A stretch of 64,000 nucleotides of DNA from Nitrosopumilus sp. (lineage in GTDB: Archaea; Thermoproteota; Nitrososphaeria; Nitrososphaerales; Nitrosopumilaceae): positions 448,001-512,000 of the forward strand of contig OZ244651.1 in NCBI GenBank assembly GCA_965218695.1, in the 5' to 3' direction. The notes beneath the pieces are model-generated. The model was not told where the DNA came from, did no database searches, and was given only the letters and a program-made list of their open reading frames with translations. Below, in pieces: positions 31,210 to 53,564 of this stretch (its first letter is position 1; each line of letters begins with the position of its first letter). Made by a program: the position numbers and the translations under genes.

Positions 31210-31241
31210 GAAATGAATCAATCGTTCATTTCATTTAAATA
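31210..31241 (+). promoter_or_regulatory. Palindrome plus TATA box of S-layer gene 1
   Basis: GAAATGAA-TCAATCG-TTCATTTC, then TTTAAATA 27 nt before ATG 31269. Confidence 0.6.
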
Positions 31242-31370
31242 CTGTTTTCCTGATTGAAATTCAATAACATGTTTAACATAAAAACACGTATTGCAAATAG
31301 CAATACACCAAAAAAACAATTTACAGAAAGAAACACAAACACAATAAAGAACGCAAACTTACGAAAAAAC

Positions 31371-32969
31371 GTAACTGTGTAGTTTTTTGATCAAATGCTG
31401 AATTCCATGTCTCCAAGAAACTATGTATTTTTTTGACATAGGACCAGACCCTCGCGCAGGACCGTGCCAAGATCATCTCCCCTTGCCTTGCATGTCTGCT
31501 TGATGCTCATCAGCGTGGCAATGGCGTCTGCGCCCTTCTTTGACCTGCTCCCGTTGCTGTTCTTGCGCAGGATGACGCACGGCCTGATGGCCCGCTCTGC
31601 CCGGTTGTTGTGGTATTCGACATCGTCTGTCTCCAGAAACGCAAACAGGTGATCCCTTTCCCGCACCAGCCTCTTGCGCATCCTGTTGCAGTGCTTGCAG
31701 TCGCGGTTCTTCTCGAGCCTGCCTATCATGGACGCGATGCGACGATCCAGCCTCTTCTTTGCGGCAAGCGCGTCTGCCCCTCCCGGAACGGCGCCGTCGA
31801 CGTGCGAGTCCCGCAGTATCGCGCGCAGCGTCCTTGCGTGCCGACGGTAGTCCTGGCCGGGATTCTTGTATCTCAGGGTGGCCTTGACGTCCCGGACGTA
31901 ATGCAGGTGGCACTTTTGGTGCATGGCTCCTATGACGTTCCACGCTCCCCACGAGTCAGACGTCACGCATCCCGGGTAGTCCTTGCCGAGCATCTTTTTT
32001 GGAACCTTCGAGTTCCTGCGGCGGTGCACCTCGTAGATTACGGCGTACCTTGTTACCACCGCCCACAGCCAGTAGTTCGTGCCGTCGACGCGCCAGACGG
32101 ACTCGTCCCCGTTTATCGCAGGCGAGTTTCTTACCTCCTCCTTGATCTTCTCGTACAGCGGCCCGAGCTCCCGGGCCATCCTGCACACCATACGGTTTAT
32201 CGCAGATTCCGTGATTCTTGCCGAGTACATCATCATGACAATATTGCATATTCTGAGGTCTGACATGCCGTGCAGCCTGAGGATGACCATCATTATCATA
32301 AAGTTGATCCCGTACCTGGAGTTTGGCAGTGCCAGCGGAGTCCTGCCGGACACGGTCTTCTTGCAGTTCCTGCAACGTCTTCTCTTTACTGTCACCTTGA
32401 TGTGCTTTAGTTCCGTCTTGGCAGCCTCCCTTACCACCTTTGTGTACGTGGATACGCACTCGGAGAGGTCGGAGCTGCCGCAGTTGTCGCACGTGTGGGG
32501 ATCTGCCGTCTCCTCTGCGTCTATTCTTTCAGGACGCGCAAGGCCCGTGCGCCTGTGGACGCTTGGCTTGCCCTTGGCCTTTGTGCGGCGTCTGGCACTG
32601 CCCGTCTTTTTGTCAGGTTTTGCGCCGATGCTCCTTGCAACGGCAGCCGATATGGTGCCCCTTGCTTCCTGCAACTCTGCCGTGAGGTCCTGGATCTGCC
32701 TGAGGGCGGCAGCGTAAAGATCAGTGAGTTTGGCTATCTGCTGGTCCTTTTTGGCCAGCTGCCCTGCCATCATCTCCACTTTTTCCTCCAGTTCTGCAAT
32801 CCTTGACTCGGAATTATCATCAGACATAATGCAAACCGTGGGAACTGATGATCTAAAAATTGGAATGGAGAGAAAAACTCGATCAAGTGATTAAAAATAG
32901 TTTCAAAAAAACTACACAGACGTTTGTAGGCATGGAATTCAACATTTGATCAAAAAACTACACAGTTAC
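31371..32969 (-). mobile_element. IS66-family single-ORF element (transposase 31421-32827)
   Basis: About 38-bp TIR GTAACTGTGTAGTTTTTTGATCAAATG..; 8-bp TSD GAAAAAAC; DESVW, QKCHLH and NNRAER motifs. Confidence 0.92.
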
Positions 32970-34891
32970 GAAAAAACTAGTTTAACACTGATGACGATAA
33001 TGGTGGCAGGCGGACTCACGTTTGCCATACCCGGCATGGAGCCGGCACAGGCAGCCCAGATAAACAGCAACCCGAACCTTCTGGTTTCAGCAGAGGGACA
33101 AAACGCAGGCAACGAGATTGCAGAAACCAACATAGTGGAGGTCATCGTAAATGACGAGGATATCAACGAGCTTGGTAATGCCGAACCACGTGTAACTGTG
33201 GGCGGTGATAAACTTACAATGTATCAGGCTGGTTCTGGTGCATGGTATGGATACTTTGCAGACGAGGACTTTGAAACCATTTTCGATCTTGCGTGTACTG
33301 CTGCTGCTCCACCTCTTGGTGCCCTCTGTGCTCCGGACGTTACCGGAAACTATCTCAGAGACACACCAGCTAGAGGATCAACTGATACTCTAGGCGGTAC
33401 GGAGGCAAATGTCTATCTCTTTGAACTCAGTGGCGAATTTGACATCGTCTACGAGAAGGCAGGAGGCGACCAGACCGTGACTCTGGATATTGATAATCCT
33501 GCATCTGGACTCAGTCTGGACAGGAACAACTACCCGCAGAATACCGGCGTGGTGGCTACCATCGAAGACCAGGCACTGAATGTGGATCCTACTGGTAAGG
33601 ATACATGGACATTTGGCACTGACGGGAACTCGCAGTTCTACGGGACTGCTACTGGCCTTGCAGGGCTTGTAACCGCTGCTCAAACCAGAAATACTGACAT
33701 CGATAACGCTAATACTGCATATGAAACGGCTATTGCTAATGTTCAATTCGATCGCGCAGAAGCAAAGCGAATACTGGACAACGCAATTGATCTTGCAGAC
33801 GAGGTTATTACTAACCCAATTGCAGCCACAACCGACAAAATAAGGCTTATTGCAGAATATGGGCAAGGCGATAGAGACACCGCCTCTGGCGTTGATGCCA
33901 TTGACGATGCCGCTCTAGCCAGTGTTACCGTTACCAGAAACGATGTTACCACTGCCACTCTCCCAGACTTTATTGCACCCGCGAACCTTGCTGACTTTGA
34001 TGAAGACTCCAAGGGTCTCAGACAATTGCTCTTCGAAAGCCTATATGGTACAGGAGACAGAGATTCCAATGATGCAGAAAGCGATGACTACAAGGGCAGT
34101 CTACTGGTAGACTACGAAGCAGTCGCTGGTACAGGAGACAGAGATTCCAATGATGCAGAAAGCGATGACTACAAGGGTACCGCACTGATAGCCTTAGAAA
34201 GGGTAGTTGGAAACGGAGACAGAGATGTTACTCCCGCCACTGAGCAGGAGATAACAAACATAACTGAGGGTACTGACCCAGTACCTGATGACTACAGGGG
34301 CTCAGCACAGATAGCCTATGATACTGCTCTTGACACCGCTGATATCGCCGGAACCGCCGTTACTACGGCTCTTGAGGCGTTTGACATTAGCGACCCAAGG
34401 AGCCTGCTCACGTGTGAGGGTGACACCTGTACTCAAGTCGGCAGTACCTTTTGGGTAACATTCACAGAAGACGGAGACAACGACTCCATATTCACTAACG
34501 CGCCAGACGACGAACCAAACATAAAGACTACATCCGATGCGAGACGGGGACTGTCATTTTCAATCGAATATGACAACTCCGTGACATCCGGCATAGAGTA
34601 CGCCACGACCAACATCGTAATAGATGCAGGAGACGAGTGGAACTCTGGCGAGGAGATCGCAATCACGCTGACAGACAGTGACGCCAACACCAACTCACTA
34701 TCAGAAGAAACCCTCGCAGTTGCAGATACAGACAGGGTCATTCCAACCATCAGGATTGGCGACCCGTTCACCTTGGCAGGGACAGTTTCAGTAGAACTGG
34801 AAACGGCTGACGGTGCTGATACGGACGAGCTACGTGATGTCAGGACTTACAGAGAACCCACAGTCACAGATGTCAGCGACATACTTGTGCT

Positions 34892-36183
34892 CAGTCTTCC
34901 CAGAAGTAGCTCAGGGTAGCACCGGCGGCGGGGGCTCCGGCGGCTCTTTGTAGCCAAATACGATCAGCAACAGCAGCATGTCCCTGAGATCCTGTTGGGT
35001 GATCGGGGGATCCGTGGGATAAATCCCGGTAACGTGCATCAGCGTTGCGTTTGCCATTACCCAAGCGTTAAAGACGGCTACAGAGTACACAAAGCACAAA
35101 AGTCGCGCCATCGGGTTCTTGCTGTGCGTCTTGGCCCTTGTGTTTTCTATCATCCGGTATCCAGTCTCTATGCCCCACCTGTTCCCGTACGAGTCCGGAT
35201 CCACGTCGGGGACGTTGGTGGCAAACCCGATGTATTTCTCGTGCGGCAGCAGCTCGTCGTCGTCCTTTCTTTTCTTCCTCTTCTTCCTTTCTGTGATGGT
35301 CATCGTATACGACACCTCCCTGCCATCTCCCCCGACGATGACGGATTTGGAGACGCGGCCGCGCCTGCCTGTAGCAAACTCTGCGATGGCATCCACCACA
35401 GTATCCGTATTCTTGCATGGTATCAGATATTTGATGCCCATGTCCCCAAGCGTCCCCATTACGTCTGCCGTAAAGAACCCCCTGTCCAGCATCGCCATTC
35501 CGATGCAGGCCCCCACGTCCCGTGCAGAGCCGATGATTTTACGCACGAAATCGGCAGTATCCTCAAGTGACGGCATGTTCAGGACGCCTAACACGAGGCG
35601 AAGGTTCTGAACCGTGGACTGTATCGTGATGTACCTCTCAAAGACGTGTGTCCCGTCCTTGGCCTTTGAGCGCACCAGTTCTGCCCCGTAGCTCTTGTCG
35701 TATCTGGGTATCAGGTGCATGTCGATTGCCAAGTCAATCTCCTGGTCTTTCTTGAGCAGTCTCATCTTGCGCATCTGGTCAAGCTGCAGGACGACTGTCT
35801 TGGCAAAGCATTTGTAGACGTCGCTGCCACGCGTCCGGGATGCCGCATCGCGCATCCACTCATCACTTGGGCGTGAGTCCCCGTCTGCACCGCCGATTCT
35901 CTTGGAGGACCTGGTGCATCCGGCCACCTGCCTGCCGTGCGCACATGCGCCTGCCATGCTTCTGTGAAAATCCTCGGTGCCGTAGATGGCATTGTGCCTG
36001 TGTGAGACCATGATGCACGGGGACATGCCTGCCCCTACCGTGTCCAGAACATCTTGATATATGCGTGGGTTGTTAAGCAAGTCGCGTCTCAGTTGGTTCA
36101 TTGGTAGTTCGATGACCTTCTGAGATTGCCCTAATTGATCTGTTTTGATTTTGGGCTGTTTTCAGGTACTTCTGGGAAGACTG
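34892..36183 (-). mobile_element. ISH3-family element (transposase 34911-36101)
   Basis: TIR CAGTCTTCCCAGAAGTA; 5-bp TSD GTGCT; AIDMH, LDRGFF and RWGIETGYR motifs. Confidence 0.92.
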
Positions 36184-39100
36184 GTGCTGGACGCTGGTAC
36201 ATATACGGGTAACTCCACACTAACCATTAACTTGGGTGAGTGGGCGGACGTCAACAACCATCTTCCACAAAACGAGAAATCCTTCAAAGGCACGCACATG
36301 CTAAACTATGATATCAGCGATCTTCCAGACGCAGGCACCGTCACCCTTAACATCGGGGATGATGACTACGATCTTGTGAACGTTGGCGACGACGGTGATG
36401 CTGGAACCAAGGTTCTTACTACACCCGCCTTCTCTCCTGGAGATCCTAATACGGATCCACAAAACTTTGGAGCCCTGTATGACGACGAGACTGGTGACAT
36501 AATCGACTCTAGTGAACAAACATCACTGGTAATCGAATTGTGGCCTCCTAATGCTGATGGTACAGTTACTGCTAACGCCGAGGCGACAGGTTCCCTATCT
36601 GACGCTGCAATCATAATCGACGTCTTCTCATTCGGCCTAGATGGCGGAAGTGAGACTGAAACAGATGATGGTGAAATTGAGACTGAATTCGGAAACGACA
36701 ATGTCAACAACGCTATCTACAGGCTTGAACTCGAAGAGGACGGCGACAGCAGCAGTGACTTTGTAGGCACTCTGGAGTACGTCGGACTCAACCAGATCAA
36801 CATACTGAAGCTAGGGACATACACCGGCATCGAGACAATCAGCGACGCAATCATACTGATATCTGACGACAGCTCCATCTCAGTCGAGTATCTCGACTTG
36901 GACTCCACCGGCGGCGAGACTCTGTTCACGGCCGAGGCAGACACCCCGACACACTCGGGCTCAGTGGCCCTCGACTCTGACGGATACAAGGTTACAGACA
37001 CTGTCACAGTAACAGTGGAAGATGCAGACCTGAACGTTGACAGCGGAAAGGCCGACATCTACACGACTTACGGCGACATGATCAGCGACGCGGATGCCGT
37101 TATGGAACTGCTCACCGTGTCAATTGACGGCCAAGATTGGAATGCAGGATGTGGCCTTGGTGGACTTGACGCCAGCCAGTTCACGCTCCGGGAGACCGGA
37201 AGTGACAGCGGCGTGTTTACCGGCACATTCGCGATTCCGGAAAACCACTGTCCCAGCGGAGAATCTAACGGAGAAGCAGCCACAGTCACCGGCACAGACG
37301 TCTCAGTCGAATATGTCGACTTTAGGGACGACTCTGGTGCGATCATATCTGTGAGCGCTTCTGCGGGCATACGATCCAGCACCGGATCCGTGAGCCTTGA
37401 CAGGACCGTCTACCCGGTACCGTTCAGCGCAACCTCCTTTGAGACTGCAGCAGGCGGTGACCTAGACCAGGGCGACCTGACCATCTATGTCAGCATCAAC
37501 GATTCTGACTATGACACGTCATCCAACGGAATAGACAACATTGACGACACATCCCTGGCGATAAGCGTGCTCCGAAGCGGTGTTGAGGACAAGGTATTTG
37601 ACACTGTCGGAAACGCAGCCAACCCAATCTCTGAGACTGCGCCTGATTCTGGCGTATTCGAGCACGAGATGACCATTTCATACGCCGATGGCCCAGATGG
37701 CAGCATCCAGCAGGGAGACATTCTCCATGTGCAATACACTGACCCATCTGACGCATCAGGCAGCGCAAACACGGTAACCGACTCTGCAACGTTTGACTTG
37801 CGAAACGGCGTACTCCAGTCCGACCAGACTGCGTACATCATCGGAAGCGACGCGATACTGACACTCATCGAACCCGACTTGAACCTTGACAGCGGCTCCA
37901 CAGAGACATACGACCTTGACCTGATCGAATGGGACTCTGATGCGGGCACAGAAACGCTCAATTATGGAGGCTTTGACGCAACACCGTCCAACCTCTTGGA
38001 GACTGGCCCCAACACTGGAATCTTCCAGGTTGTGATCAGCATTCCAAACGAGATAGACGATGACCGCCTCGAAAGAGGTGAGGAGATCACACTGGAGTAT
38101 ACAGACTGGGGACCATCCGGCGCTGACTATGTCGGCGACAAGGACGAGTCCATAACCGCGACCATCTACACGTCTAACTTTGGCGCAACCATCGAGCTGG
38201 ACCAGCGCGTCTACACGTGGACTGACAAGGTCTACGTAACAGTAGTCGCACCTGACCACAACATCGATAGCGACCAGGTAGACGAGATAGGAGGCGACAG
38301 CAACGACGACTACCCGGTCAGGATATCCACCCGTGGAAACGAGCTTGACAACTACAAGCTTGTCGAGACTGGTGCCGACACCGGCATCTTCACAGGCGAG
38401 GTAATCCTGACAGGATTCTCCTCCCATGACGCAGACGGCGACGGAAACGACGGCGATGCGACAGGAAGGACGGGCGGCGCAGGACCGACAGACGGCGAGA
38501 TAGAAACCGACAGTGAAAGCGGAATATCCGTATCATTCAAGTTCTCTGACGGCGAGACAGTAAGCAACTCTGCCCTAATCAGGTGGAACGTAGGAGAGGT
38601 CCAGTGGCTCGAGGCAAGTTATCCTGCCAGCGGATCAGGAATAGTGAGGATCATCGATCCTGACATGAACCTGAACCCAGAGGCAGTCGACAACTTTGAC
38701 GTGACCGTCTGGTCCGACTCTGACGGAGGCGGAATCGACCTCACCGTGACTGAGACCAATGCTGCAACCGGCATCTTTGAAGGCACCGTCTTCTTTGGTG
38801 TTGGAGTTGACACCAGCGGCCACAGGCTCAGGGTAGTAGAGGGCGACACAGTCACCGCGCAGTACTACGACAACACGCTGCCGGCACCGTTCAAGGAGAC
38901 AGAAAGGCTCCGAGTAGGCGCCACCACTCTGATCGGTACCATCGTACCACCACTGGAGAGGGCACCAATCTCTGACCTGCGCGCAGTCGATTCATTTGGC
39001 AACACCTTGGACACCGTATCCGTTGACACCCAGATTCAGCTAGAGTCTGACGTAACCAACGGACAGGACAAGGCACAGGAGTTTGCCTACCTCATACAGG

Positions 39101-39309
39101 TACAGGATGAAAACGGCGTCACGGTCTCACTTGACTGGATCAAGGGTTCGCTGACAGCAGAACAGTCACTCAGTCCGGCAGTCTCTTGGACTCCAGACGA
39201 GGCAGGCACGTACGACGTGACTGCGTTCGTGTGGGAATCCATCGACAACCCGACTGCACTCTCACCAACCGCAACGATAGCAATAACTGTAAACTAGAAC
39301 ACACACCCC

Positions 39310-39327
39310 TTTTCTTTTTTTTATTTT
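39310..39327 (+). terminator. T-tract terminator after S-layer gene 1
   Basis: Oligo-T run after TAG; similar tail after gene 2. Confidence 0.6.
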
Positions 39328-39420
39328 GAATATGGCCTAACGTGGGTTATGTGCTGACTGCTACCGTCCTCTCCTTATACCTAAGATTGCGGGACAGCCA
39401 AGACGGTTTACGGATTCTGG

Positions 39421-40089
39421 TTATGCCATAAAACTCACAATATGGCCGTGCGCGAGCAGCAGCATGAAAGCCGCAGCAGCCGTAAACAGCAAGAGCGGAC
39501 ACGCGCATTCCACGTATCTTGTAGTGCCTGTTCTGGCAAACTCTTGATCAGGCGGCTTCATTCCAAATTTCAGCCTGCGCCTGCCTACAACCGTCTCCTC
39601 TGCAAGAAACGTATTCCTTTCAAACCCCCTCTGCCTGTGCACAAGGAAGAAGGCCGCACACTTGCGCATCCTGCCATCTGATACTTCCAGAAACACGCCG
39701 CCATTCCTCATTACATCCGAGACGTTCAGTGACACGTTCCACGCTACTGCAGACACCAGCGACAGCACCCACCCTCCCATGAACGCCGGCAGCACGGTGG
39801 GCACGATGCCGTCATAAACCGGACATATGACCAAACCTGCAAACACGGCAAACAGGTCTCCGGTGCCAAACAACCTCATCCCCCACAACAGGGATGCTGC
39901 CGATGCGGATCCTGCCATCAAACACAGCACCAACAAGGTCACGTCCTGCCAGTCAAAGACATACAGTATTGCGCCAAGACCGCCAAACATCACAAACACC
40001 ACGTCGCTTGCCTCGCGAGTCCGAAGGTCAAGCCAGGCAAGGGTGGCAAACATTGCAAGGAACAGCGCGATGCGGACCTCCTCGATCAT
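39421..40089 (-). CDS. A24 prepilin/preflagellin peptidase-like membrane protease
   Basis: WLDLRTRE and GTGD aspartate motifs, multiple TM helices, C-terminal P-hydrophobic motif. Confidence 0.75.
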   Translation of the reverse strand: MIEEVRIALFLAMFATLAWLDLRTREASDVVFVMFGGLGAILYVFDWQDVTLLVLCLMAGSASAASLLWGMRLFGTGDLFAVFAGLVICPVYDGIVPTVLPAFMGGWVLSLVSAVAWNVSLNVSDVMRNGGVFLEVSDGRMRKCAAFFLVHRQRGFERNTFLAEETVVGRRRLKFGMKPPDQEFARTGTTRYVECACPLLLFTAAAAFMLLLAHGHIVSFMA

Positions 40090-40120
40090 CAAACGGTGTG
40101 TACCACGTGTTTTTAAGCCG

Positions 40121-40645
40121 TCACAGCAGCTGCGCGCGCACATAATTCCGCATTGCGTACACGTCGTAGTGGTACTCTCTGAGGCGGCCTGCCCCGCCCT
40201 CTGTGAGGGCGTACAGCCTTGGTGCCATCCTTTTGATGATCCCGCGTCTCTTGAGTCTCCATATCTTGTTCTGCACGGTCTTGACATCCAGCAGCCCCGT
40301 CAGCCTCTCTGCCATCGGCTGAAACGCGTACGGAAATGACGAGTCCCGCTGCCGCTGCCGCCTTCGCAGGTCGTACTCCACGTACATGTCAGATGCGATA
40401 AACATCTCCACCGGGCAGAGTTTCATCTTGCGCGCTATTGCCTGCCACCTGCCGACATCCGTAAGCACCAGGGATCCATCCGACTGCTTTATTATCCCGC
40501 GAGCCTGCAGCCTGAACTTCATTTGGGGCGTTATGCCGCCGGCATCCCCGTCATCTAGCATCCTGATCAGTGCCCTGCCCGTGGTGGCGCGGATAGCCAC
40601 GAGTCCAAGACGTCTTTTGGCCCTCTCTTGTGCGTGATTGCGCAT
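40121..40645 (-). CDS. Tandem winged-helix DNA-binding protein
   Basis: Two LxxRGII...LTxxG wing motifs. Confidence 0.65.
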   Translation of the reverse strand: MRNHAQERAKRRLGLVAIRATTGRALIRMLDDGDAGGITPQMKFRLQARGIIKQSDGSLVLTDVGRWQAIARKMKLCPVEMFIASDMYVEYDLRRRQRQRDSSFPYAFQPMAERLTGLLDVKTVQNKIWRLKRRGIIKRMAPRLYALTEGGAGRLREYHYDVYAMRNYVRAQLL

Positions 40646-40678
40646 AGACTGGCTGCACCCCGGAGGTTATTGGACGGT

Positions 40679-41749
40679 TCAGAGAAGCGAGAATTTGGTT
40701 CCGTCCCCGTCAATCGTCCTGACAAACCTGACAAGCGTTTTGGCATCGTTAAAGTCACGGGCATGCAGCGGCCGGTCCCCCAGTTCCAGATGCGCCTCGG
40801 ATCCCAACGGGACAAGGTATGCCGGCTTGGCAGTGTTTTCATGCAGCTTGAACGCCCTTCCGGCATCGGCCATGCTTACCTCCCTTACGGTATTGTCCTT
40901 TTTGTTGACGATAAATTTGGGTTCGCCGTCATCATCGGTGACTATCATGCAGTCCTTGGCGGTGCGCGAAAGATCTTCCAAAGCGTCGTGCTTCACCTGC
41001 CCCAGAATGCCTGGCTTTGCAGGCCTTGACCCCCCGGACCTTGTAATGCCCACAATCACGGGTTCGGCCTGCACTTCCGGTTTCGGAGTGTTCCGTATCA
41101 AGTAAACGATGGCGTCCGGAGCCGGCCACGCAAAATTCATCTCCGATTCTGGAATGGTGATCTCGGTTATCCTCTCGGCCATGTCCGTCTGCGCCACGGG
41201 ATCCAGGCGGGCTATCCTGAGCAGAATGTGCGTCGGCACCACCAAGAGTTCCGCCCTGAGCTTGCCGGAGAGTTTGGTTTCAATGAACTCTGCAAACACG
41301 CCAAGCGCCTCATCGGTGATATCGCACTTTACGACCTTCTCCAGGGACGTGCCCTGCAGGTTGATCCCCTGTATGGCCTCATCGGCTGACATCCCAAGCG
41401 CCCCAAGCTCGTCGATTATCCCCCTGATGCGGAGCGGATCTATGTGCTCCCCTGCAGAAACCCCCTTAATCTGGTCAATCATGAGGTCCAGTTTGGACTC
41501 ATACCTTCTGGCATCCATCCTGATCTCATGCACCGAGGCGAGATTGCACGCCTCCAGTATGTCCAGTCCGCCCATCGGATAACACCTGCCGTCAACCACT
41601 CCGACGCGCACCGGGGGCAGGTTTGCCGGATCCGAGCGCGCCGCCTTTTCCAGCCTTAAGACGTCGTGCCTGCTGCCGGCGGTGCATCGCACCAGCGGCT
41701 CTTCCAGTTCGTCGATTCCCATCGTCTGCATGTCTGCGTTTTGGCTCAT
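40679..41749 (-). CDS. ParB/Srx-like N-terminal domain protein
   Basis: PPVRV..VDGRCY..GG..LEA resembles a degenerate ParB fold; ATGA overlap with the upstream gene. Confidence 0.5.
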   Translation of the reverse strand: MSQNADMQTMGIDELEEPLVRCTAGSRHDVLRLEKAARSDPANLPPVRVGVVDGRCYPMGGLDILEACNLASVHEIRMDARRYESKLDLMIDQIKGVSAGEHIDPLRIRGIIDELGALGMSADEAIQGINLQGTSLEKVVKCDITDEALGVFAEFIETKLSGKLRAELLVVPTHILLRIARLDPVAQTDMAERITEITIPESEMNFAWPAPDAIVYLIRNTPKPEVQAEPVIVGITRSGGSRPAKPGILGQVKHDALEDLSRTAKDCMIVTDDDGEPKFIVNKKDNTVREVSMADAGRAFKLHENTAKPAYLVPLGSEAHLELGDRPLHARDFNDAKTLVRFVRTIDGDGTKFSLL

Positions 41750-43749: not shown

Positions 43750-43863
43750 ATGGACGACACGTGCGACATGTGCGAAAGAAAATTCAACGATCACAGCAAC
43801 AAGGAGTTGGCCGCGTGCGGGTTCGCGCTGGTAAACGAGATAAGGACCACGAGGGGCGCATAA
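43750..43863 (+). CDS. 37-aa Zn-finger microprotein
   Basis: MDDTCDMCERKFNDHSNKELAAC.. (CxxC..H..C); below the ORF-track cutoff. Confidence 0.55.
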   Translation: MDDTCDMCERKFNDHSNKELAACGFALVNEIRTTRGA

Positions 43864-43940
43864 TCGCCGATCTGCCGCGCCAGAATAAGCGGATCACGGC
43901 AATCCAGGATGGAGAAACGAACCGCGCGTTGCTGCCCATA

Positions 43941-45587
43941 TCAAGACAGGATCGGCCTGACTGCGTATATGCGCTGCCCGGAGGACTCGTTCAGTAATCC
44001 CAGATGTGCCATCTAGCACCTGATGCAAACAGATCAATGGGGGCACGCCCAGACGATCCTTATGTACCACCAAAAAGATCGCCTGAGACGCGATATGATG
44101 AACAATGGCAAAATATATGAATCTGTTGAGAAGGTGCTGAGAGAAAGCATCGTGCCGTCCGCCGAGGTCTCCAAAAGGTACAACGCGACATATGGCGCAA
44201 GCGACTTTAACGTTGGCATGCTGCATGCCGCGATGCTTGACACTTCGGTCGGCGGATGCAGCTTCGCCATGAGAGAAATCACGGCGCAGTCCATCGAGAA
44301 TCCAAGATATTCACGTCATTCTCCAAGCGACGAGTGGTTTCGCGATATCCTGTCCAAGACGGACGAGGGTAAGGCGCTTGAGACTTTTAACCAGGCGGTA
44401 AGGGCACAGCTGGATGAGCTTTACCTGTTTGGCAGGCTGCCTGATGTGCTTGATGTGGCCATCGACATGCACCTGATACCGTGCCACAGCAAGAAACTTG
44501 GCTCTGACCTGAGAGGCGGAGAGCGCAAGAGCGGCACCAACAGATTCGAGGCGTACATCACGGCGCAGTGCGTCAACTCCAAATCGCGGCTTATCCTTGC
44601 GGCCCTATACGTGGACAAGTCCTCATCCGTGCACGAATCCCTGCGTGAAATCCTCAATTCGTGCCTAGAAAACGTCTCCGCCGTCGGATCCAGGCTGGGA
44701 CTGATCCTGGTTGACAGGGGCTTCTTTTCAGTGAACTCAATATCCGAGATTGAGCGTCTTAGCCTTGAGTACCTGATGCCGTGCACCAGAACCAGTAGGG
44801 TGAAAGACTCGCTGCGCAAGTTCGTGGCCAAAACGCTCGGCCCCATCTCAAAATCCGACATGACGAATTCTGACAAGGCAACGGTTCAGTACCACATGAT
44901 CATAGCAGAGAAGAAGAGAGTAAGGAAGGAAAGTGAGGGGGCGAAGAACGGGGACAAGAAGGCAGGTGCGCCGGAAGATCGATACATTGCGTTTGCCACC
45001 AATGCCCCGTGGATGGATGTAGAGGAATATTCCAAAAGGTGGACCATCGAGACATGCTACAGACTGGTAGAGAATGCCAGGGCGAAATCGTTCGGCAGCA
45101 GTAGGCCTGCCCGGCTTTTCTGCTTTCTGTACTCGCTGATGCTATTCAATGCGTGGGTGCTGGTAAACGCGCAGCTGGCCAGCTTTCTGAAGCTGCGTGA
45201 CGGAGTCCTTCCGGTGACGCAGCTGTATATGAAAATTGTCACGCTAATAGCAATCTATCGGAATATTACGATTCAGCCCGAGCCACCGCCAGATCCCGTG
45301 GCTCCGTGAGCACATCTGGGATTACTGTCGTTTACGCCGTACGTCGATATACTGACAGACTTTGCGCCGCGTTCCTCCAGCATGGGAACGTACGCTTTCG
45401 CGTCGCAGGTCATCAGGTCGCATCCACGCTTAATGCAGAACGCGGCCAGCACCGAGTCAGAACTGCTTGCATTGACGTCCGGCGACTCGCCGACGCGGTG
45501 GATCGTGAGATAGTCCTTGAGTATTCGTGAATTGTTGACCCGGGCCCACCCAATCAATTGGTAGTCGATTAGCACGCTGTTGCCCAT
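43941..45587 (-). pseudogene. PIN-like protein split by ISH3
   Basis: VLID..D..CDLMTCD; removing the IS rejoins YGVN-ESSGQRIYAVRPILS*. Confidence 0.6.
43992..45327 (+). mobile_element. ISH3-family element (transposase 44023-45309)
   Basis: TIR CAGTAATCCCAGATGTGC; 5-bp TSD TCGTT; AIDMH, VDRGFF and RWTIETCYR motifs. Confidence 0.92.
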
Positions 45588-45721
45588 GACGGGTCGTCTG
45601 CAGGCAGGCTATTAATACGCATCTTGCAGAAACTCTGTTTCCTAACTCAGAATATTTCGTACTTTTGCGACGAATCTAGTCACAAACAACGTCAGACCAT
45701 ACGAAAGCCGCTCTTGTGGTA

Positions 45722-46969
45722 TACCAGCAATGAAAAATTCATATCAAAATTTCCCATAAATGTTTGACACGGCAACCATCTCTGGAAATCATGACGCATG
45801 TTGGATACCCAAACGACTGGGGATGCTCCGGGCATCTGATATCGTGGACATTTGAAGCATCGTGCATGGCATACGCTGGCTGTGTGTCCCATGCGATTTG
45901 ATGCCGTTAGATGGTTCTGTACAGAAAGTGCTCAACGACCAGATTCGGTTTTTTGTACCTCGTGTACCTGGTGATCGCCTCGCGAAGCATGCTCAGGCTG
46001 GTGTACGGCACGTCAAGCACTGCCCGTTTGAGATCCCTCCAGTACGTCTCTATGGCGCTCAGGTCCGGGGTCGCAGTCGGCAGGAAGATTATCTCCAGGC
46101 CGTCCGTGCCTTCGAGCAGTTTGCGTATGTTTGATGCCCTGTGCTGGGAAGCCTTGTCCATGATCAGGCAGATCTTCTTGAATTTGTATGCTGCCTGCTT
46201 TAGAAAGTCTTCAAAGGTGTCCTTGGTAAACGCGTCGTACTGCCGGAACATGCCCCTTCCGTCCGTGGTGATCAGTCCGTGGATTATGGTTTTGGAGTGC
46301 GAGCCGGCGTGCGTGAAAAACGCCCGTACCCCCTTCCTGGCGTGGCCGCGCCTTCGCGGCCGCGCATCGGAGATCACTATGGACTCGTCCTGTATCGCTA
46401 CGACTGTCCCTTCGCCGTTCTTTTTTTTATGAGCTCCGGCATTCCTTCCTGGAATTCCCTGATCTCCTCGTCGGGTGCCCTTTTTGCGTGCCTTCCCACC
46501 GGAACCTTCTGGGAGTAGCCCCACCCCCGCAGCATCTGGCGCACGTATCCGAGGTCGTACTTTATCCCCGTCTTCTGTTGGATGCGTTCCTGCATCTCCT
46601 TGCCCGTCCAGACAGGTTTCCTGCATGCGTCCTTTCTGATTTTTTTCAGGTCTGTCCTGCTCGCCTTGGACGGCCTGCCGGAGCGTGGCATGTCAGCCAG
46701 CCTGTCAAATCCGTCTGCCAGGTAGCGCTTATACCACTTGTAGCCCCACGAGGCCGACTTTCCCAATGATTTTGCAGAATCCCTCATGGTTATTCCGTCA
46801 CGTTGGACTCTGATGATCATCATCATGCGGTCCTTGACATCACAGTCTGTCTCAGCGGCGTATCTTTTCAGCATCGTCTTGGTCCTCATTGATTGTGTAG
46901 CGTGAAACGGGCATAACCCCACACGTGACAAAAAATATTTACAATCGCACTAATTTTTCACTTTTGGTA
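45722..46969 (-). mobile_element. IS630-family element with two ORFs joined by a probable -1 frameshift
   Basis: TA TSD; TIR TACCAGCAATGAAAAATT / TACCAAAAGTGAAAAATT; orfA 46398-46874, orfB ends 45907; A8 run at 46421-46428. Confidence 0.88.
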
Positions 46970-47100
46970 TAAACTGGATGGCATTCCGTGAGGCCCGGCA
47001 GGTACCGCCGAACAAAACCGTATTGTCGTTGTTCACGTCTCTTTGCAGTCATTAGACGGTGCCGTGATCTGCAGGCCCATATCTTTTCATCCAGAAGCAT

Positions 47101-48006
47101 ATGTCTCTAGGACATACCATCTACATGATCACATTTTTAACAAAACCCCCTCCATACTGCGTATTGAGACGATGCATCCAATGCGGAGACGAGTTTGAAC
47201 CGTCTGGCAGCCTCAACGCATTGTGCAGCAAGAAGTGCGCCCTGGCCAGACGGGCGCAGCAGACCCGGGGACGCAGGTTTAGCACAGAAAAGACGTGCGT
47301 CCAGTGCGGGAAGAGATTCGTGACGACGAACCCGAACAAACTGAACTGCAGCAAGGAATGCGCCCGCAAGAGCGACATCCTGAGAATACGGAAATGGCAC
47401 GAACGGCAAAAAGACGAGGCGTTAAGGCGACGCTGCGCCGAGATACTCGAGGCCGCCCCGCCGGGAACCATGACCGAGGAAGATGCCATGAAATACGCCA
47501 GGGACGAATCAGAATCCAAACGGCGACGAGGGCTGACACGCGAAGAACGGCGACGGACCAAAAAGACGTGCGTGCAGTGCGGCAAGACGTTCGTGACGTC
47601 CATCACGAGAAAGATAACGTGCAGCAAGGAGTGCGCCCGAGACCGCAATGCCGCACGAAGAAAGACGCTGTACGACTTGCATTACAGGAAGAAATTAGAA
47701 AAAGCGTGCATTCAGTGCGGCAAGACGTTCGAGGCGCCAGGCGCAAAGCGGATCTGCAGCAAGGAATGCACCCGGCTCAGGCTGAACAAGCAAGCCAACC
47801 AATCCTACAAACGGCACCGCGGGAAGGAAACAGAAAAGGAATGCGTCCAATGCGGGAAGACATTCAAGACTCCCAGAGATTGGAACGTGGTCTGCGGCAA
47901 GGCATGCGCCAGGCTCAGGAATAACGAGCGACGGCGCAAACCACCCCGTAAAAAAACACCTGAACACGTGGAAAAACATCCTAGTCGTGGCCGTGACCAT
48001 GGATAG
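47101..48006 (+). CDS. Basic protein with five CxxCG..F..CS..C Zn-finger repeats
   Basis: Five repeated (K)xCxQCG(K)xF-x(8-9)-C(S)KxC units. Confidence 0.75.
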   Translation: MSLGHTIYMITFLTKPPPYCVLRRCIQCGDEFEPSGSLNALCSKKCALARRAQQTRGRRFSTEKTCVQCGKRFVTTNPNKLNCSKECARKSDILRIRKWHERQKDEALRRRCAEILEAAPPGTMTEEDAMKYARDESESKRRRGLTREERRRTKKTCVQCGKTFVTSITRKITCSKECARDRNAARRKTLYDLHYRKKLEKACIQCGKTFEAPGAKRICSKECTRLRLNKQANQSYKRHRGKETEKECVQCGKTFKTPRDWNVVCGKACARLRNNERRRKPPRKKTPEHVEKHPSRGRDHG

Positions 48007-48130
48007 ACTCCTTGCTAAGCGTGGATTCGCGCACTTGCATTTGAATGGGGCAGCATTATCGGCGCCGTCCTTGTCGTCGTTTCTGCGATCGGAACCGCGG
48101 CCGCCCAGGCCACGCCACCGCCAAGAAAAA

Positions 48131-48160
48131 AAAGAACCAATGGTTCTTTAGTTTTAAATA
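48131..48160 (+). promoter_or_regulatory. Palindrome plus TATA box of S-layer gene 2
   Basis: AAAGAACCA-A-TGGTTCTTT, then TTTAAATA 28 nt before ATG 48189. Confidence 0.6.
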
Positions 48161-48188
48161 CAAAACCGGCTTTCAATAGCTTAATCAC

Positions 48189-51100
48189 ATGAATAATGAA
48201 AATACAACGGGCTCATATAGAGCCCACAACATAACTAGAAATACAGACACAATAACGAACACACACGTACGAAAACTTACAAGCATAGCACTGATGGCGA
48301 TAATGGTGGCAGGCGGACTCACGTTTGCCATACCCGGCATGGAGCCGGCACAAGCCGCACAGATAAACAGCAACCCGAACCTGCAGGTTTCAGCAGAGGG
48401 ACAAAACGCCGACAACGAGATAGCAGCAACCAACATCGTGGAAGTAATTGTCTCTGATGGCGACATAAACGAACGAACTGACGAACCGCCGATAGTGACG
48501 GTGGACGACACTAACTCCCTTACAATGACCTTTTACTCTGGGGCATGGTATGCATACTTTGCATCCACTACCATTGTAGACACTGGTTTAATTGATAAGG
48601 TTGAGCCCATACCTGCTAACGTTGGAGATGACCCTACCGACGAAGAGATCGCAGTGGCTGACGCCGCCAATCAGGTGTCCGTCAATAGACTTGTCAAGGG
48701 TTCACCGTTCGATCTTGCTAGCACTAGTGGTACTCCTGCCGATGAGACTGACGTAGACAACGATGATGCAATTAATGTCCACCTCTTTTCACTCGACGGA
48801 ACATTTGACGTCGTTTACGAAAGACCCGGACCCGACCAGACAGTATCTATGGAACTTGATGATCCTGACGTAAGCGTAAGCTTGGACAGGTCAACCTACC
48901 CGCAGAACACCGGCGTGGCAATTACGATTGACGACCAGGCAATGAACGTGGATCCTACAAGTGGGGATACGTGGTTCTTTAGCGATGGAGACATTGCCGC
49001 ATACTACGGAAACATTCCTGCTGTTGGAACGCAAGGAAATGCTGAGCAGGTAAAACAGGATGCTAATGACGCAGCTGAGGAAGTAAGACGCCTGGCAGTT
49101 GAAGCCGCTGAGGAAGTAAGACGCCTGGCAGTTGAAGCCGCTGAACCAGAGACGGTGATTGCCGCTCTGCTTCCAGCAACGGTGATTACAGCTGCTCAGG
49201 CAGAATACAACGAAATAACTGCCGCAGCCGACATTGCTTTGGAAGACCCGCTCGTATTTGGTAGTGAGAGGGCAAGAATCATAGCATACGCCGGACAAGG
49301 AGAGAGAAACGTTGTAACCGATAGCCCAACTCCAGATGACCCTACTACCTACGATGAAAATCACAAGGGTCAAGCATTGGTAAACTACGAAGAAATAGCC
49401 GGAAGTGGAGACAGAACATCTGACAACGAAAATGATGACCACTACAAGGGCACAGCAAAGATAGCCTACGAAGAAGCAGTCGGAGACAAAACTATTGAAG
49501 ACATGACCACCACTGCATACAAGGGTTCCGCACAGGTAGACTATGAAGGAATAGCTGGAAACCCAGAAGCCAGCGCAGGCACTGCTGAACGCAAGGGTAC
49601 TGCACAGGTACTCAAAGAAGAAACAACTGGAAACCCAGATGCTACTGAAGGCACTGCTGAGCGCAAGGGTACTGCACAGGTACTCAAAGAAGAAACAACT
49701 GGAGACCCAGATGCTAATGATGGGCCTGAAGGTCCACTCTTCAAGGGTACCTCACAGGTAGCCTACGAAGAGACGCTTGGCGATGCAGCAGTCCCCACAA
49801 ATGGCAACATTGCCAGTCTTGACGCATTCGTACTTGATATGAACAATCTACTCGAATGTGCCACAGAAGGATGTGATGTCATTGATACCGTAACCTGGGT
49901 GAAATTCGAAGAAGACAGCTCAAACGACTCCAAGTTCACCAACACGTCAGACGACGAACCAAACCTGAAGACCACCGCAAATGCACAGAGAGGACTATCA
50001 TTTTCAGTCACATATGACAACACCGTGACATCCGGCATCGGCTACAGCACGACCAACATCGTAATTGATGCTGGAGACGACTGGGGCTCTGGCGAGGAAA
50101 TCAGCATAACGCTGACTGACACTGATGCCAACACCAACTCACTGACCGAAGATGACCTTGACGTTACAAATTCAGACCAGATCATTCCAACCATACGGAT
50201 TGGAGAACCATTCACTCTGGCCCAAGCTGGTTCAGTAACACTGACTACTGTTGGTGCTATAGAATCTGAATCTGTTGATTCCGAACCTACAGCGGTCAGC
50301 GACATACTCGTGGTTACTTTACCAAGACTAGATGCCAATTCTGACCACATACTGAGCATTGACCTGGGCGACTGGGATGCATTCGCAGCAGACAATCTTC
50401 CGGCAGATCACGTGGCGTTCAAAGGCACGCACATGCTAAACTATGACATCAGCGACATTGGAGGAACGAGCATAAGCCTCGTTCTTGGCGATGGAGATCC
50501 AATTCCACTTGTAACCGGAACCGATGGCACTGAAATGCTTACAGGCCCTGACTTCATACCAGGAGATGCTGACACCACAGGAGGCGAGAAATTCGGCAGC
50601 CTTTACACCGAAGCCGGCCCCATAAGGTCGCTAGGCGTAGATGCGGCAGTTGAAATCGTCTTTACCGTCGGCGAGGATGACATGCCAGCAGGAGAATACT
50701 CGATCATAATCGACCTCTTCGCATTCGGTCTTGCAGACAAGGACGACCTGACTTCCAACGTCAACGACGCCATCTACAGGCTTGAACTCGAAGAGGACGG
50801 AAGCAACAGCAGTGACTTTACAGGCACGCTGGAGTACATCGGACTCAACCAGATCAACATAGCCGAGGAAGGCACGTATACAGGCATTCAGGCAATCAAT
50901 GACAACATCATACTGATATCTGACGACAGCTCCATCAGCGTAGAATACAACGACCTTACTTCCACAGGCGGAACAAAGCTGTTCACGGCCGAGGCAGACA
51001 CCCCGACACACTCTGGCGCGGTATCCCTCGACTCTGACGGCTATCAGGTTGCAGACATTGTCCTGGTAACGGTAACAGATGCAGACCTGAACGTTGATAG

Positions 51101-53393
51101 CGGAAAGGCCGACATCTACACCACCGTTGACGCCAACTCTGATTCAGAGTTCGCCGATGCCATCGGCAGTGAAAATGCTGTTGCAGTACTGCTCACCGTA
51201 TCAATCGATGGCGAGGAATGGGCTGCAGGATGTGGCCTTGGCGGACTTGACGCTTCTGACTTCACGCTCCGGGAGACCGAAAATGACAGCGGCGTGTTTA
51301 CCGGCACCTTTGCGATTCCGGAAAACCACTGTCCACGTGACAGTGCTAATGCCGTATCTGTTACAGGCACTGACATCTCAGTCGAATATACTGACTTCAG
51401 GGACGACTCCGGTTCAATCATAACCGTGAGTGCTTCTGCGGGCATACGATCCAACACCGGATCCGTAAGCCTTGACAGGACCGTCTACCCGGTACCGTTC
51501 AGTGCGGGCTCTTTCGAGACGCATGAAGGCGATCTTGGCGATGGCAGCCTGACAGTCTATGTCAGCATCAACGATCCTGACTACGACACGTCAGCCAACG
51601 GAATAGACACCATTGACGACGCATCTCTGATGATAAGCGTACTCCGCAGCGGCTCTCCAGACCTTGTATTTGATACTGTTGGAAACTCAGCAGCCAATGC
51701 AATCTCTGAGACTGCACCTGATTCCGGCGTGTTCGAGCACGAGATGACCATCACGGCTGCTGACGGCCCAGACGGCCGTATCCTGCAGGGAGACATTCTC
51801 CACGTAGTATACGAGGATCCATCTGACGCATCAGGCAGTGCAAACACCGTGACCGACTCTGCAACGTTTGACTTGCGAAACGGCGTACTCCAGTCCGACC
51901 AGACTGCGTACATCATCGGAAGCGACGCGATACTGACGCTCATCGAGCCAGACCTGAACCTTGACAGCGACTCCACAGAGACATACGACCTTGACCTGAT
52001 AGAATGGGACTCTGATGCAGGCACATGTACGCTTGCCGGCAACGGCGGTGACTGTGACGACATCAGCAATCCGTTCGCTCCAACGCCGTCCAACTTGCTG
52101 GAAACCGGAACCAACACTGGAATCTTCCAGGTAGTGGTCTCAATTCCAGCCGATATAGATCGTGAGAGCCTACAAAGAGGCGAGGAGATCACCCTGACGT
52201 ACAACGACTGGGGACCATCCGGCTCTGATTATGTCGGAGACAAGGACGAGTCAGTAACTGCCACCATCTACACGTCGAACTTTGGCGCAACCATCGAGCT
52301 GGACCAGCGCGTCTACACATGGACCGACAAGGTCTACGTGACAGTAGTCGCACCGGACCACAACATCGATAGTGACCAGATTGACGAGATAGGCAACAGT
52401 GACGACTACCCGGTAAGGGTATCAACACGCGGAGAAGCCATTGAGGAGTACAAGCTCGTCGAGACTGGTGCCGACACCGGCATCTTTACCGGCGAGGTAA
52501 TACTCACAGGATTCCCACATGACGCAGACGGCGACCAGAACAACGATGCAATAGGCGATACATCTGACGATGGCAGCGGACCTACTGACGGCCGAATAGG
52601 AGCAGAAAGCGAGAGCGGAATATCCGTCTCATTCAAGTTCTCTGACGGCGAGACTGTCAGCAGCTCCGCCCTAATCAGGTGGAACGTAGGAGAGGTCCAG
52701 TGGCTCGAGGCAAGTTATCCTGCCAGCGGATCAGGAATAGTCAGGGTAATAGACCCAGACATGAACCTGAACCCGGAGGCAGTCGACAACTTTGACGTGA
52801 CCGTCTGGTCCGACTCTGACGGAGGCGGAATCGACCTCACCGTGACTGAGACCAATGCTGCAACCGGCATCTTTGAAGGCACCGTCTTCTTTGGTGTTGG
52901 AGTTGACACATCTGGTCACAGGCTCAGGGTAGTTGAAGGCGACACAGTCACCGCACAGTACTACGACAACACGCTGCCGGCACCGTTCAAGGAGACAGAA
53001 AGGCTCCGAGTTGGCGCCACCACTCTGATCGGTACGATAGTACCGCCACTGGAGAGGGCACCAATCTCTGACCTGCGAGCAGTCGATTCGTTCGGCAACA
53101 CGCTTGACACCATATCCGTTGACACCCAGATTCAGCTAGAGTCTGACGTGACCAACGGACAGGACAAGACGCAAGAGTTTGCCTACCTCATACAGGTACA
53201 GGATGAAAACGGCGTCACGGTCTCACTGAACTGGATCACCGGTTCGCTGACAGAAGGACAGTCACTCAGTCCGGCGGTCTCATGGACACCATCCGAGGCA
53301 GGCACGTACGACGTGACTGCATTCGTCTGGGAATCCATCGAAAACCCGACAGCACTCTCACCAACCGCAACGATAGCAATAACTGTAAACTAG
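48189..53393 (+). CDS. S-layer protein gene 2 (intact, 1734 aa)
   Basis: Signal peptide, acidic Ig-like ETG..TG.F repeats; paralog of gene 1. Confidence 0.9.
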   Translation: MNNENTTGSYRAHNITRNTDTITNTHVRKLTSIALMAIMVAGGLTFAIPGMEPAQAAQINSNPNLQVSAEGQNADNEIAATNIVEVIVSDGDINERTDEPPIVTVDDTNSLTMTFYSGAWYAYFASTTIVDTGLIDKVEPIPANVGDDPTDEEIAVADAANQVSVNRLVKGSPFDLASTSGTPADETDVDNDDAINVHLFSLDGTFDVVYERPGPDQTVSMELDDPDVSVSLDRSTYPQNTGVAITIDDQAMNVDPTSGDTWFFSDGDIAAYYGNIPAVGTQGNAEQVKQDANDAAEEVRRLAVEAAEEVRRLAVEAAEPETVIAALLPATVITAAQAEYNEITAAADIALEDPLVFGSERARIIAYAGQGERNVVTDSPTPDDPTTYDENHKGQALVNYEEIAGSGDRTSDNENDDHYKGTAKIAYEEAVGDKTIEDMTTTAYKGSAQVDYEGIAGNPEASAGTAERKGTAQVLKEETTGNPDATEGTAERKGTAQVLKEETTGDPDANDGPEGPLFKGTSQVAYEETLGDAAVPTNGNIASLDAFVLDMNNLLECATEGCDVIDTVTWVKFEEDSSNDSKFTNTSDDEPNLKTTANAQRGLSFSVTYDNTVTSGIGYSTTNIVIDAGDDWGSGEEISITLTDTDANTNSLTEDDLDVTNSDQIIPTIRIGEPFTLAQAGSVTLTTVGAIESESVDSEPTAVSDILVVTLPRLDANSDHILSIDLGDWDAFAADNLPADHVAFKGTHMLNYDISDIGGTSISLVLGDGDPIPLVTGTDGTEMLTGPDFIPGDADTTGGEKFGSLYTEAGPIRSLGVDAAVEIVFTVGEDDMPAGEYSIIIDLFAFGLADKDDLTSNVNDAIYRLELEEDGSNSSDFTGTLEYIGLNQINIAEEGTYTGIQAINDNIILISDDSSISVEYNDLTSTGGTKLFTAEADTPTHSGAVSLDSDGYQVADIVLVTVTDADLNVDSGKADIYTTVDANSDSEFADAIGSENAVAVLLTVSIDGEEWAAGCGLGGLDASDFTLRETENDSGVFTGTFAIPENHCPRDSANAVSVTGTDISVEYTDFRDDSGSIITVSASAGIRSNTGSVSLDRTVYPVPFSAGSFETHEGDLGDGSLTVYVSINDPDYDTSANGIDTIDDASLMISVLRSGSPDLVFDTVGNSAANAISETAPDSGVFEHEMTITAADGPDGRILQGDILHVVYEDPSDASGSANTVTDSATFDLRNGVLQSDQTAYIIGSDAILTLIEPDLNLDSDSTETYDLDLIEWDSDAGTCTLAGNGGDCDDISNPFAPTPSNLLETGTNTGIFQVVVSIPADIDRESLQRGEEITLTYNDWGPSGSDYVGDKDESVTATIYTSNFGATIELDQRVYTWTDKVYVTVVAPDHNIDSDQIDEIGNSDDYPVRVSTRGEAIEEYKLVETGADTGIFTGEVILTGFPHDADGDQNNDAIGDTSDDGSGPTDGRIGAESESGISVSFKFSDGETVSSSALIRWNVGEVQWLEASYPASGSGIVRVIDPDMNLNPEAVDNFDVTVWSDSDGGGIDLTVTETNAATGIFEGTVFFGVGVDTSGHRLRVVEGDTVTAQYYDNTLPAPFKETERLRVGATTLIGTIVPPLERAPISDLRAVDSFGNTLDTISVDTQIQLESDVTNGQDKTQEFAYLIQVQDENGVTVSLNWITGSLTEGQSLSPAVSWTPSEAGTYDVTAFVWESIENPTALSPTATIAITVN
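49074..49144 (+). repeat. 33-bp in-frame tandem duplication (AEEVRRLAVEA)
   Basis: Two exact copies. Confidence 0.9.
49555..49715 (+). repeat. 72-bp in-frame tandem repeat (GNP..GTAERKGTAQVLKEETT)
   Basis: Two near-exact copies plus a partial third. Confidence 0.85.
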
Positions 53394-53564
53394 AAAACAC
53401 ACACCCCCTTTTCTTTTTTTTATTTTAGACACGGCCTAGCGAGAGCTGTACGCCGGCATGCATGGACCAGCCACGTTCGTACGCCTGTCAATTTTTATCA
53501 GTCATGACATGAAACGATCCATCACGTCTACTGGCCGTCTTGACTGGCATCGAAAACACGTCGC

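Follow-up and report, generated by a model that had tools for sequence, protein, structure and literature searches.

The 64,000-nucleotide (nt) stretch of DNA analysed here (the window) comes from a Nitrosopumilus sp. genome (G000) of 2,627,169 bases and carries two surface-layer (S-layer) genes, gene 1 (approximately 31.2–39.3 kb) and gene 2 (48.2–53.4 kb), as direct repeats. A first-pass annotation of the window had read these genes, together with an integrase between them, as a locus for switching the cell coat. We consider it likely that they belong instead to an expanded S-layer gene family of the kind already reported in ammonia oxidisers, with gene conversion limited to particular domains. 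The features that seemed to define the pair as a unit, namely the signal region, the C terminus and a T-rich 3' flank of approximately 55 nt, were common to four copies in the genome and to the copies in two related genomes (G002 and G018). Therefore, they are features of the family and not of a two-gene locus arranged around an integrase.

Both genes are predicted to be S-layer genes of the NmSLP type, as the first-pass annotation had also proposed, since they matched PDB 8c8k (E = 0). The phmmer alignment of the gene 2 product with this chain (E = 0) consisted of six stretches spanning query residues 24–1732 and chain residues 3–1732, and the last 543 residues scored 805.6 bits. PDB 8c8k, annotated as a cell surface protein, is the S-layer protein of Nitrosopumilus maritimus, which has ten domains of immunoglobulin-like (Ig-like) type, of which the N-terminal ones are outermost and glycosylated, and a membrane-proximal C terminus (PMC11153153; this and the other papers are cited from parts of their text). 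The hydrophobic stretch LMAIMVAGGLTFAIPGMEPAQA, a putative N-terminal secretion signal, could be aligned to the start of the solved chain and was common across the genus. Gene 2 gave a distant S-layer match in NCBIfam; in Pfam, there was no match above the cut-off and a sub-threshold one to PKD. The genome encodes an archaeal AmoA, so the label of ammonia-oxidising archaeon is right.

A tblastn search with gene 2 identified four full-length paralogues in the genome, which were gene 1, gene 2, copy 3 and copy 4, in addition to a fragment and a distant relative of 1057 amino acids (aa). Copy 3 (C1:657980–662860, reverse strand) was contained in one frame of 1627 aa, with the ATG present and the promoter box diverged. 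Copy 4 (C1:706382–712141, reverse strand) was split by an insertion sequence (IS) of 1.1 kb, of which seven copies at 99.8% identity or more were located elsewhere. The nearest relative, G002, had two convergent copies (G002A and G002B), one of them frameshifted. G002A was broken into three frames of 464, 175 and 1013 aa. The S-layer gene of G018 was likewise broken, into frames of 981 and 544 aa; a transposase-like frame immediately preceded it, and its N-terminal part was not found. Copies 3 and 4 were situated within a segmental duplication (C1:702429–706500 versus 646255–658097; 85% identity over at least 3.5 kb, with additional shorter pieces), which takes in a gene for 885 aa as well as the one that lies downstream of the S-layer gene.

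The copies were compared as codon alignments and as trees of four segments, numbered in gene 2 codons from MAIMVAGG. In the last approximately 250 codons, all six within-genome pairs had a proportion of synonymous differences (pS) of 0.05–0.34 and a proportion of nonsynonymous differences (pN) of at most 0.08. For the same codons, the values between copy 3 and its orthologue G002B were 0.31–0.50 (pS) and 0.06–0.30 (pN). In the N-terminal and middle parts, pS was mostly 0.12–0.5 between copy 3 and G002B, against 0.5–0.9 between copy 3 and gene 1, gene 2 or copy 4. The trees behaved likewise. In segment 530–690, copy 3 grouped with G002B (support 100/99) and copy 4 with G002A (90/99), and the latter grouping recurred in segment 800–1090 (100/100). 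In segments 1100–1400 and 1440–1699, G002A grouped with G002B (100/100 each), and in 1440–1699 the four G000 copies were placed together, along with G018, on end branches of 0.007–0.045. Approximately unbiased (AU) tests of this last segment rejected copy 3 with G002B (p = 1e-5) and copy 4 with G002A (p = 7.5e-4). Conversely, a clade of the four G000 copies was rejected in segments 530–690 (p = 5e-83) and 800–1090 (p = 4e-6). The clustering of the copies by genome in the last third, in both genomes, amounts to concerted evolution by gene conversion across the whole family, to which the membrane-proximal third has been subject independently in the two genomes.

The partners in this exchange were not those expected of a tandem pair. 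The last 780 nt of gene 1 were nearest to copy 3 (97%) and not to gene 2 (94%), and copy 3 is located 170 kb from gene 1 on the opposite strand. Exchange is therefore genome-wide and not a property of the pair. The conversion system put forward in the first-pass annotation thus holds as far as the conversion tracts at the 3' end are concerned, on the evidence of the trees, pS and AU tests, but a role of gene 2 as the partner of gene 1 is not supported, copy 3 being nearer. Full-text searches of the literature brought up no report of conversion between S-layer paralogues in archaea.

Purifying selection on the signal peptide and the anchoring domains, acting alone and with no exchange of DNA, could be held responsible for the similar ends. 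The signal peptide and the C-terminal domains are indeed conserved in protein across the genus, and pN was very low at the 3' end. However, the synonymous sites were homogenised as well (compare the within-genome pS with that between orthologues above), the copies clustered by genome in two genomes independently, and the AU tests agreed. Selection alone is a very unlikely account overall; it is rejected for the 3' third and possible for the short 5' block.

Within the pair, gene 2 extends over 48153–53393 on the forward strand. It has a TATA-like box at 48153–48160, an ATG at 48189, one open frame (48189–53393) for an intact S-layer protein of 1734 aa, and a terminator-like 3' flank (53394–53441). 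Gene 1, on the same strand, is open in two frames (32946–34919 and 36145–39297). Its promoter and leader (31199–31370) contain a TATA-like TTTAAATA at 31234–31241 and an ATG at 31269–31271, and are followed by a first coding piece with the signal region and variable outer domains (32978–34891), a second coding piece (36189–39297) and a T-rich, terminator-like 3' flank (39298–39355). In both genes the TTTAAATA box stands approximately 28 nt 5' of the ATG. Gene 2 is probably the expressed coat gene, or working copy, because it is intact and has this canonical box 28 nt before its ATG.

The direct repeats with similar ends were present where the first-pass annotation had placed them, although its description of the ends as nearly identical overstated a likeness of approximately 93%, not 99–100%. 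The 5' signal regions (32995–33135 and 48298–48438) were identical at 131 of 141 positions (92.9%), and the 3' ends (38570–39297 and 52666–53393) at 682 of 728 (93.7%), with 134 nt as the longest exact run. Similarity past the stop codon, which had been put at approximately 45 bp, was 80% over 48–51 nt and then was lost, with 50% in the next 100 nt. The middles were mosaic, as had been noticed, with a sliding profile of 23% to 97% identity per 100-column window. Identity was mostly 25–80% in the N-terminal half and mostly 70–97% from approximately 36686 (gene 1) and 50751 (gene 2) onward. An island of 38 nt with 97% identity, within a region of approximately 55%, was common to genes 1 and 2 only. 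The leaders of the two genes were also homologous across the first IS in gene 1 (31318–31370 pairs with 48226–48278; 78–89% per window), and that of gene 1 was most like the leader of G002A.

The variable N-terminal regions contained tandem peptide repeats around a DDYKG...YE motif (gene 1, 34046–34324; gene 2, 49361–49771). There were three units in gene 1 and six in gene 2, with periods of 72–81 nt, so that the copies also differ in their number of repeats.

An alternative reading is cassette-type coat variation, in which the four copies, two of them silenced by ISs, would be an archive from which segments are copied by homologous recombination into the expressed gene. We regard this as unlikely. 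It would leave the outer face of the coat changeable and the anchoring third constant, and would make the family an archaeal counterpart of pilE/pilS-type or vlsE-type variation in a host-associated archaeon, a parallel we consider doubtful. An advantage of mosaic outer domains in evading viruses or host recognition appears similarly improbable. The copies do undergo gene conversion, recombination could be anchored in the conserved 5' and 3' blocks, and the variable half is the outer, glycosylated half. All four frames were open until recent IS insertions. The leader and the body of gene 1 and of copy 4 have different nearest relatives in G002, and the 38-nt island occurs in genes 1 and 2 alone. 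However, the conversion demonstrated homogenises the conserved third, whereas the variable half keeps its orthology with G002 and is not shuffled. A promoter box and a start codon are present at gene 1 and again at gene 2, and thus these copies are not silent cassettes by design. Furthermore, no mosaic or chimeric contig survived checking (see below), and N. maritimus, according to the portion of PMC12448741 cited here, uses its second S-layer gene by regulation, without DNA rearrangement.

Several observations weigh against an expanded family with domain-limited conversion as the whole explanation. The clades submitted to the AU tests were chosen after the trees had been seen. Alignments of the N-terminal half were gappy and synonymous sites there almost saturated, which means that it is chiefly the better-aligned blocks that support the orthology pairs. 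In the N-terminal and middle parts, the best match of gene 1 was usually gene 2 and vice versa; this fits a local duplication, in which a mobile element may have taken part. The gene 1 leader was nearest to G002A, yet it is copy 4 that pairs with G002A further in. Together with the 38-nt island, this mismatch means that exchange may extend into the variable part, so that a function in variation is conceivable. The choice of the expressed copy was made from promoter boxes and open frames alone. Lastly, the chromosome is heavily rearranged, and synteny therefore neither proves nor excludes an old integration.

Gene 1 was indeed disrupted, as the first-pass annotation had noticed, but it was broken by two ordinary, recent multicopy ISs (31371–32969 and 34892–36183) and not by an integrative element. 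The first, in the leader, is an IS66-family element on the reverse strand with a 468-aa DDE_Tnp_IS66 transposase (Pfam, E = 1.5e-34) and inverted ends of 65 nt. It is flanked by an 8-bp target duplication, GAAAAAAC, at 31363–31370 and 32970–32977. Four other copies in the genome were 100% identical over 1599 nt, and an 8-bp duplication flanked all five. The second is an IS4/IS5-type element inside the gene, also on the reverse strand, with a 396-aa DDE_Tnp_1 transposase, the terminal inverted repeat CAGTCTTCCCAGAAGTA and a 5-bp duplication (GTGCT) at 34887–34891 and 36184–36188; 13 other full-length copies were found at 99.6% identity or more. When both ISs and one copy of each duplication were removed, gene 1 became a single frame, open for 1669 codons between MTIMVAGG and the stop. 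Hence, it was whole until recently. A similarity ("LSLPR") at the IS border was considered as gene sequence and rejected, as comparison with other copies placed it in the terminal repeat of the IS.

Reduced to one copy of the 8-bp duplication, the leader of gene 1 (31269–31370 plus 32970–33000) contained an A6 tract and was out of frame with the upstream ATG. One A fewer in this tract would hold the frame, and the IS66 element was inserted exactly there. The offset may represent a genuine frameshift, slippage at the homopolymer or an error in sequencing. In sequencing run X6, one low-depth contig (2.3) joined the right end of the IS inside gene 1 (34890–36183) to its left end with 4 letters in between, a pattern that would correspond to a circular or tandem form of this IS.

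Such insertions were common in this genome. Repeats of at least 400 bp at 88% identity or more made up 641,153 of the 2,627,169 bases (24.4%), 359 blocks were at least 700 bp long, and the 64-kb window alone had 13 transposase-type frames. A survey from 2019 gave 0 to 83 ISs per thaumarchaeal genome (PMC6563490); the IS load is extreme for an ammonia-oxidising archaeon. With about a quarter of the genome in repeats, two IS insertions in a dispensable gene of 5 kb need no special cause.

The interval between the genes (39298–48188), estimated beforehand at approximately 9 kb with an intact tyrosine recombinase, measured 8.9 kb and contained an open integrase frame of 398 aa (42538–43734, forward strand). 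The product was tyrosine-recombinase-like (phrog_1, E = 2.7e-9) and had 204 homologues, some of them named site-specific integrase and some labelled as integrases of Nitrosopumilus or Cenarchaeum. Residues R170, R296, H325 and Y335 were invariant in 25 of 25 aligned sequences and are read as the putative catalytic Arg/Arg/His/Tyr set. Searches gave no Pfam Phage_integrase match at E ≤ 0.01 and no meaningful solved relative at E ≤ 1. From the homologues and the invariant residues, we take the frame to be a real tyrosine-recombinase-like gene.

This recombinase gene appears to be a bystander. Its full-length paralogues in the genome, at 1.106 and 1.810 Mb, were more than 390 kb from any S-layer copy, and fragments were located at 0.750 and 2.439 Mb. 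In seven relatives from the genus with integrase matches, the nearest S-layer-family match was at least 83 kb away in five and on a different contig in two. None of 19 integrase loci in other genomes (261,325 bases) contained an S-layer homologue or another gene of the interval. The first-pass annotation had tied the integrase to S-layer genes and had named its occurrence apart from them as evidence to the contrary, and the relatives were unlinked everywhere examined.

The rest of the interval is a patchwork of a four-gene cluster, two ISs and a zinc-finger gene beside the lone integrase, with no demonstrated part in S-layer variation. The cluster lies on the reverse strand. Its first gene encodes a 239-aa zinc-ribbon protein (41746–42465; weakly TFIIB-like), followed by a 390-aa protein (40679–41851; ParB-like, as a lead only), a 174-aa frame (40121–40645) and a membrane protein (39421–40287). 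The 174-aa frame had a weak winged-helix match and no homologue was found elsewhere. The membrane protein has a GxGD-type motif and is conserved from approximately residue 68, and its homologues match type IV leader peptidase family A24. The order of zinc-ribbon, 390-aa ParB-like protein, gap or small gene, and A24-peptidase-like membrane protein was kept in eight of eight wider loci. At none of the eight was an integrase of this family or an S-layer gene found within 8–10 kb. The 390-aa gene itself was patchy, occurring in 14 of 300 genomes of the family. Since integrase, cluster and S-layer genes occur apart elsewhere, the supposed integrase module is a chance neighbourhood of separately travelling parts.

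Downstream of the integrase is an IS4/IS5-type IS (43987–45327, forward strand) with a 428-aa DDE_Tnp_1 transposase and five other full copies at 99.8% identity or more. An IS630-type element (45841–46971, reverse strand), with its transposase split into two overlapping frames, is older or degenerate, as its identity to other copies was only approximately 88%. Immediately before gene 2, a 301-aa basic protein (47101–48006, forward strand) has five CxxC...C..C zinc-ribbon repeats, with a repeat spacing of 135–273 nt in the DNA and a weak match to a phage "HNH endonuclease" (phrog_1271, E = 1.8e-21). Its gene was unique in the genome and absent from all integrase and cluster loci compared. Seven proteins of the interval gave no match in a library of defence systems.

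An integrative element with its own S-layer gene (approximately 39.3–53.4 kb, comprising the cluster, the integrase, the zinc-finger gene and gene 2) could have entered at or beside gene 1, with the conserved 3' end as attachment (att) site. We consider this quite unlikely, although direct repeats of approximately 770 nt and approximately 45 nt bracket a 14.1-kb unit that holds the open integrase, and the 390-aa gene has a patchy occurrence. For thaumarchaeal integrated elements, small Ig-like "S-layer" genes have been listed (PMC6563490, in the legend of Fig. 6 and an 11-row supplementary table). A lineage-specific breakpoint (window 31199; C1:479.2 kb versus 698.8 kb) also lies upstream of gene 1, at most a few bases from its promoter region. 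In G002 and G018, the JAB gene (window 30794–31198) is followed directly by the genes found in G000 at 698.8 to 688.8 kb. However, the att-like repeat was common to all four copies as well as to G002 and G018, the 3' end of gene 1 was nearer to copy 3 than to gene 2, and gene 1 was broken by ISs instead. Relatives of the integrase adjoined an S-layer gene at 0 of the 19 loci and nowhere in the related genomes searched, and the cluster occurred without an integrase of this family in eight of eight. No short direct repeats bound the interval: a repeat search of 39250–48300 gave no convincing candidate, and no partial copies of tRNA-Met (54300–54374) or tRNA-Ser (23491–23575) were found near it. 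An empty site was also not detected, as the flanks of the locus were not adjacent in any of five relatives searched. In four typical relatives, a single S-layer gene lies in a conserved neighbourhood, whose flanks meet in G000 at C1:342.16/342.30 kb without an S-layer gene.

Two observations concern tRNA genes outside the interval. An exact 16-nt match to part of tRNA-Ser (C1:1106896–1106911) lies approximately 50 nt from the start of an integrase paralogue (C1:1105660–1106844); it is possibly an att remnant, and with E = 0.09 it could be due to chance. Next to tRNA-Met, a 52-nt direct repeat (54389–54440 and 55689–55740; 81% identity) brackets a gene for a 350-aa rve-type transposase/integrase, and this unit may be a small element inserted beside the tRNA gene.

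Public sequencing data were examined as Logan contigs, and those of four runs were aligned to 31000–50999. Ten runs contained part of 36200–44000, and none of them is on record as RNA. An assembly artefact, with one gene collapsed or duplicated by the assembler, might be suspected in a genome so rich in repeats, and the first-pass annotation had itself raised a collapse as the origin of the similar ends. This is extremely improbable, as the copies differ by 6–7% even where they are most alike and by far more elsewhere. Moreover, contigs of independent runs matched the copy-specific parts with 0 differences and bridged the unique flanks into each gene. The IS at 43987–45327 was polymorphic: in runs X3, X5 and X6, position 43986 was joined to 45328, and an X1 contig entered the IS. 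This points to very recent transposition.

The excised circle or chimeric gene that the first-pass annotation had envisaged was not supported by any public contig. A joint from 50043 to 34607 in runs X1 and X3 (short side of 73 letters), the single one in the contigs that went back and resembled a circle junction, was considered as a junction from gene 2 to gene 1. It was rejected as a contig of copy 3, because the 7 letters between the sides and the next 14 nt occur in that copy. Two skip joints, 31248 to 48237 (X6) and 33608 to 49742 (X5), were not counted; their short sides were 47 and 28 letters, and the runs were from other studies and had been aligned at 90% likeness.

Taken together, we propose that the region carries two members of a four-gene family encoding the principal S-layer protein of an ammonia-oxidising archaeon with high G+C from the Nitrosopumilus/Cenarchaeum group. 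This family would be old, with at least two lineages that predate the split from the nearest relative. The N-terminal halves, corresponding to the outward-facing, glycosylated side of the solved homologue, are strongly divergent. The membrane-proximal last third, the signal region and the terminator would have been kept alike by repeated gene conversion among all copies, presumably through RadA-type homologous recombination, and by purifying selection. Gene 1 remained whole until it took up two multicopy ISs in a recent burst of IS activity across the genome, to which copy 4 was likewise lost.

In ammonia oxidisers, the S-layer is presumed to enrich ammonium, and it is what viruses and hosts encounter of the cell. 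As this locus shows, several coat genes whose outer halves differ greatly can occur in a single lineage. A membrane-side third made uniform by recombination is what would be expected if all copies must fit the same anchoring and lattice contacts. The genome is also an instance of an ammonia oxidiser with approximately one quarter of its DNA in repeats, and the coat genes are among the casualties. As a correction, the integrase at this locus is not evidence of a switching device.

In Campylobacter fetus, the sap system combines a single promoter, carried on a segment that can invert, with cassettes that lack promoters and are conserved at their 5' ends. The genome studied here resembles it in having several S-layer copies with conserved ends, variable middles and homologous recombination among them. 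The parallel drawn in the first-pass annotation does not extend to the way the system works, as gene 1 and gene 2 are each equipped with a TATA-like box and a start codon. In addition, homogenisation mainly affects the 3' end, the two genes are arranged as direct repeats, and the contigs showed neither an inversion nor a chimera.

With the cryptic integrated elements of thaumarchaea (Krupovic et al. 2019, PMC6563490), the locus shares a lone tyrosine-recombinase-type integrase with a few small genes, and some of those elements carry Ig-like "S-layer" genes. It differs in that no att repeats, tRNA target or empty site were found, and in that the genes adjacent to the integrase form a cluster found elsewhere without it.

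The sponge-associated Ca. Nitrosospongia ianthellae and Cenarchaeum symbiosum have expanded S-layer sets and abundant transposases (PMC6790972), and thus share with this genome many S-layer paralogues and an enrichment in transposases. The parts of that paper cited here give counts and expression, not recombination among copies.

The closest comparison is with N. maritimus, which has two S-layer genes that are 91% identical (PMC11153153), the second being up-regulated in biofilm (PMC12448741). Nmar_1547 (NmSLP, PDB 8c8k) and Nmar_1201 are homologous to the genes described here over their full length, most strongly in the last approximately 540 residues, and both genomes have more than one S-layer paralogue. 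The differences are four copies here versus two there, outer halves that are very divergent here versus 91% identity overall there, the inactivation of two copies by ISs, and the domain-limited concerted evolution shown here by comparison with a sister genome.

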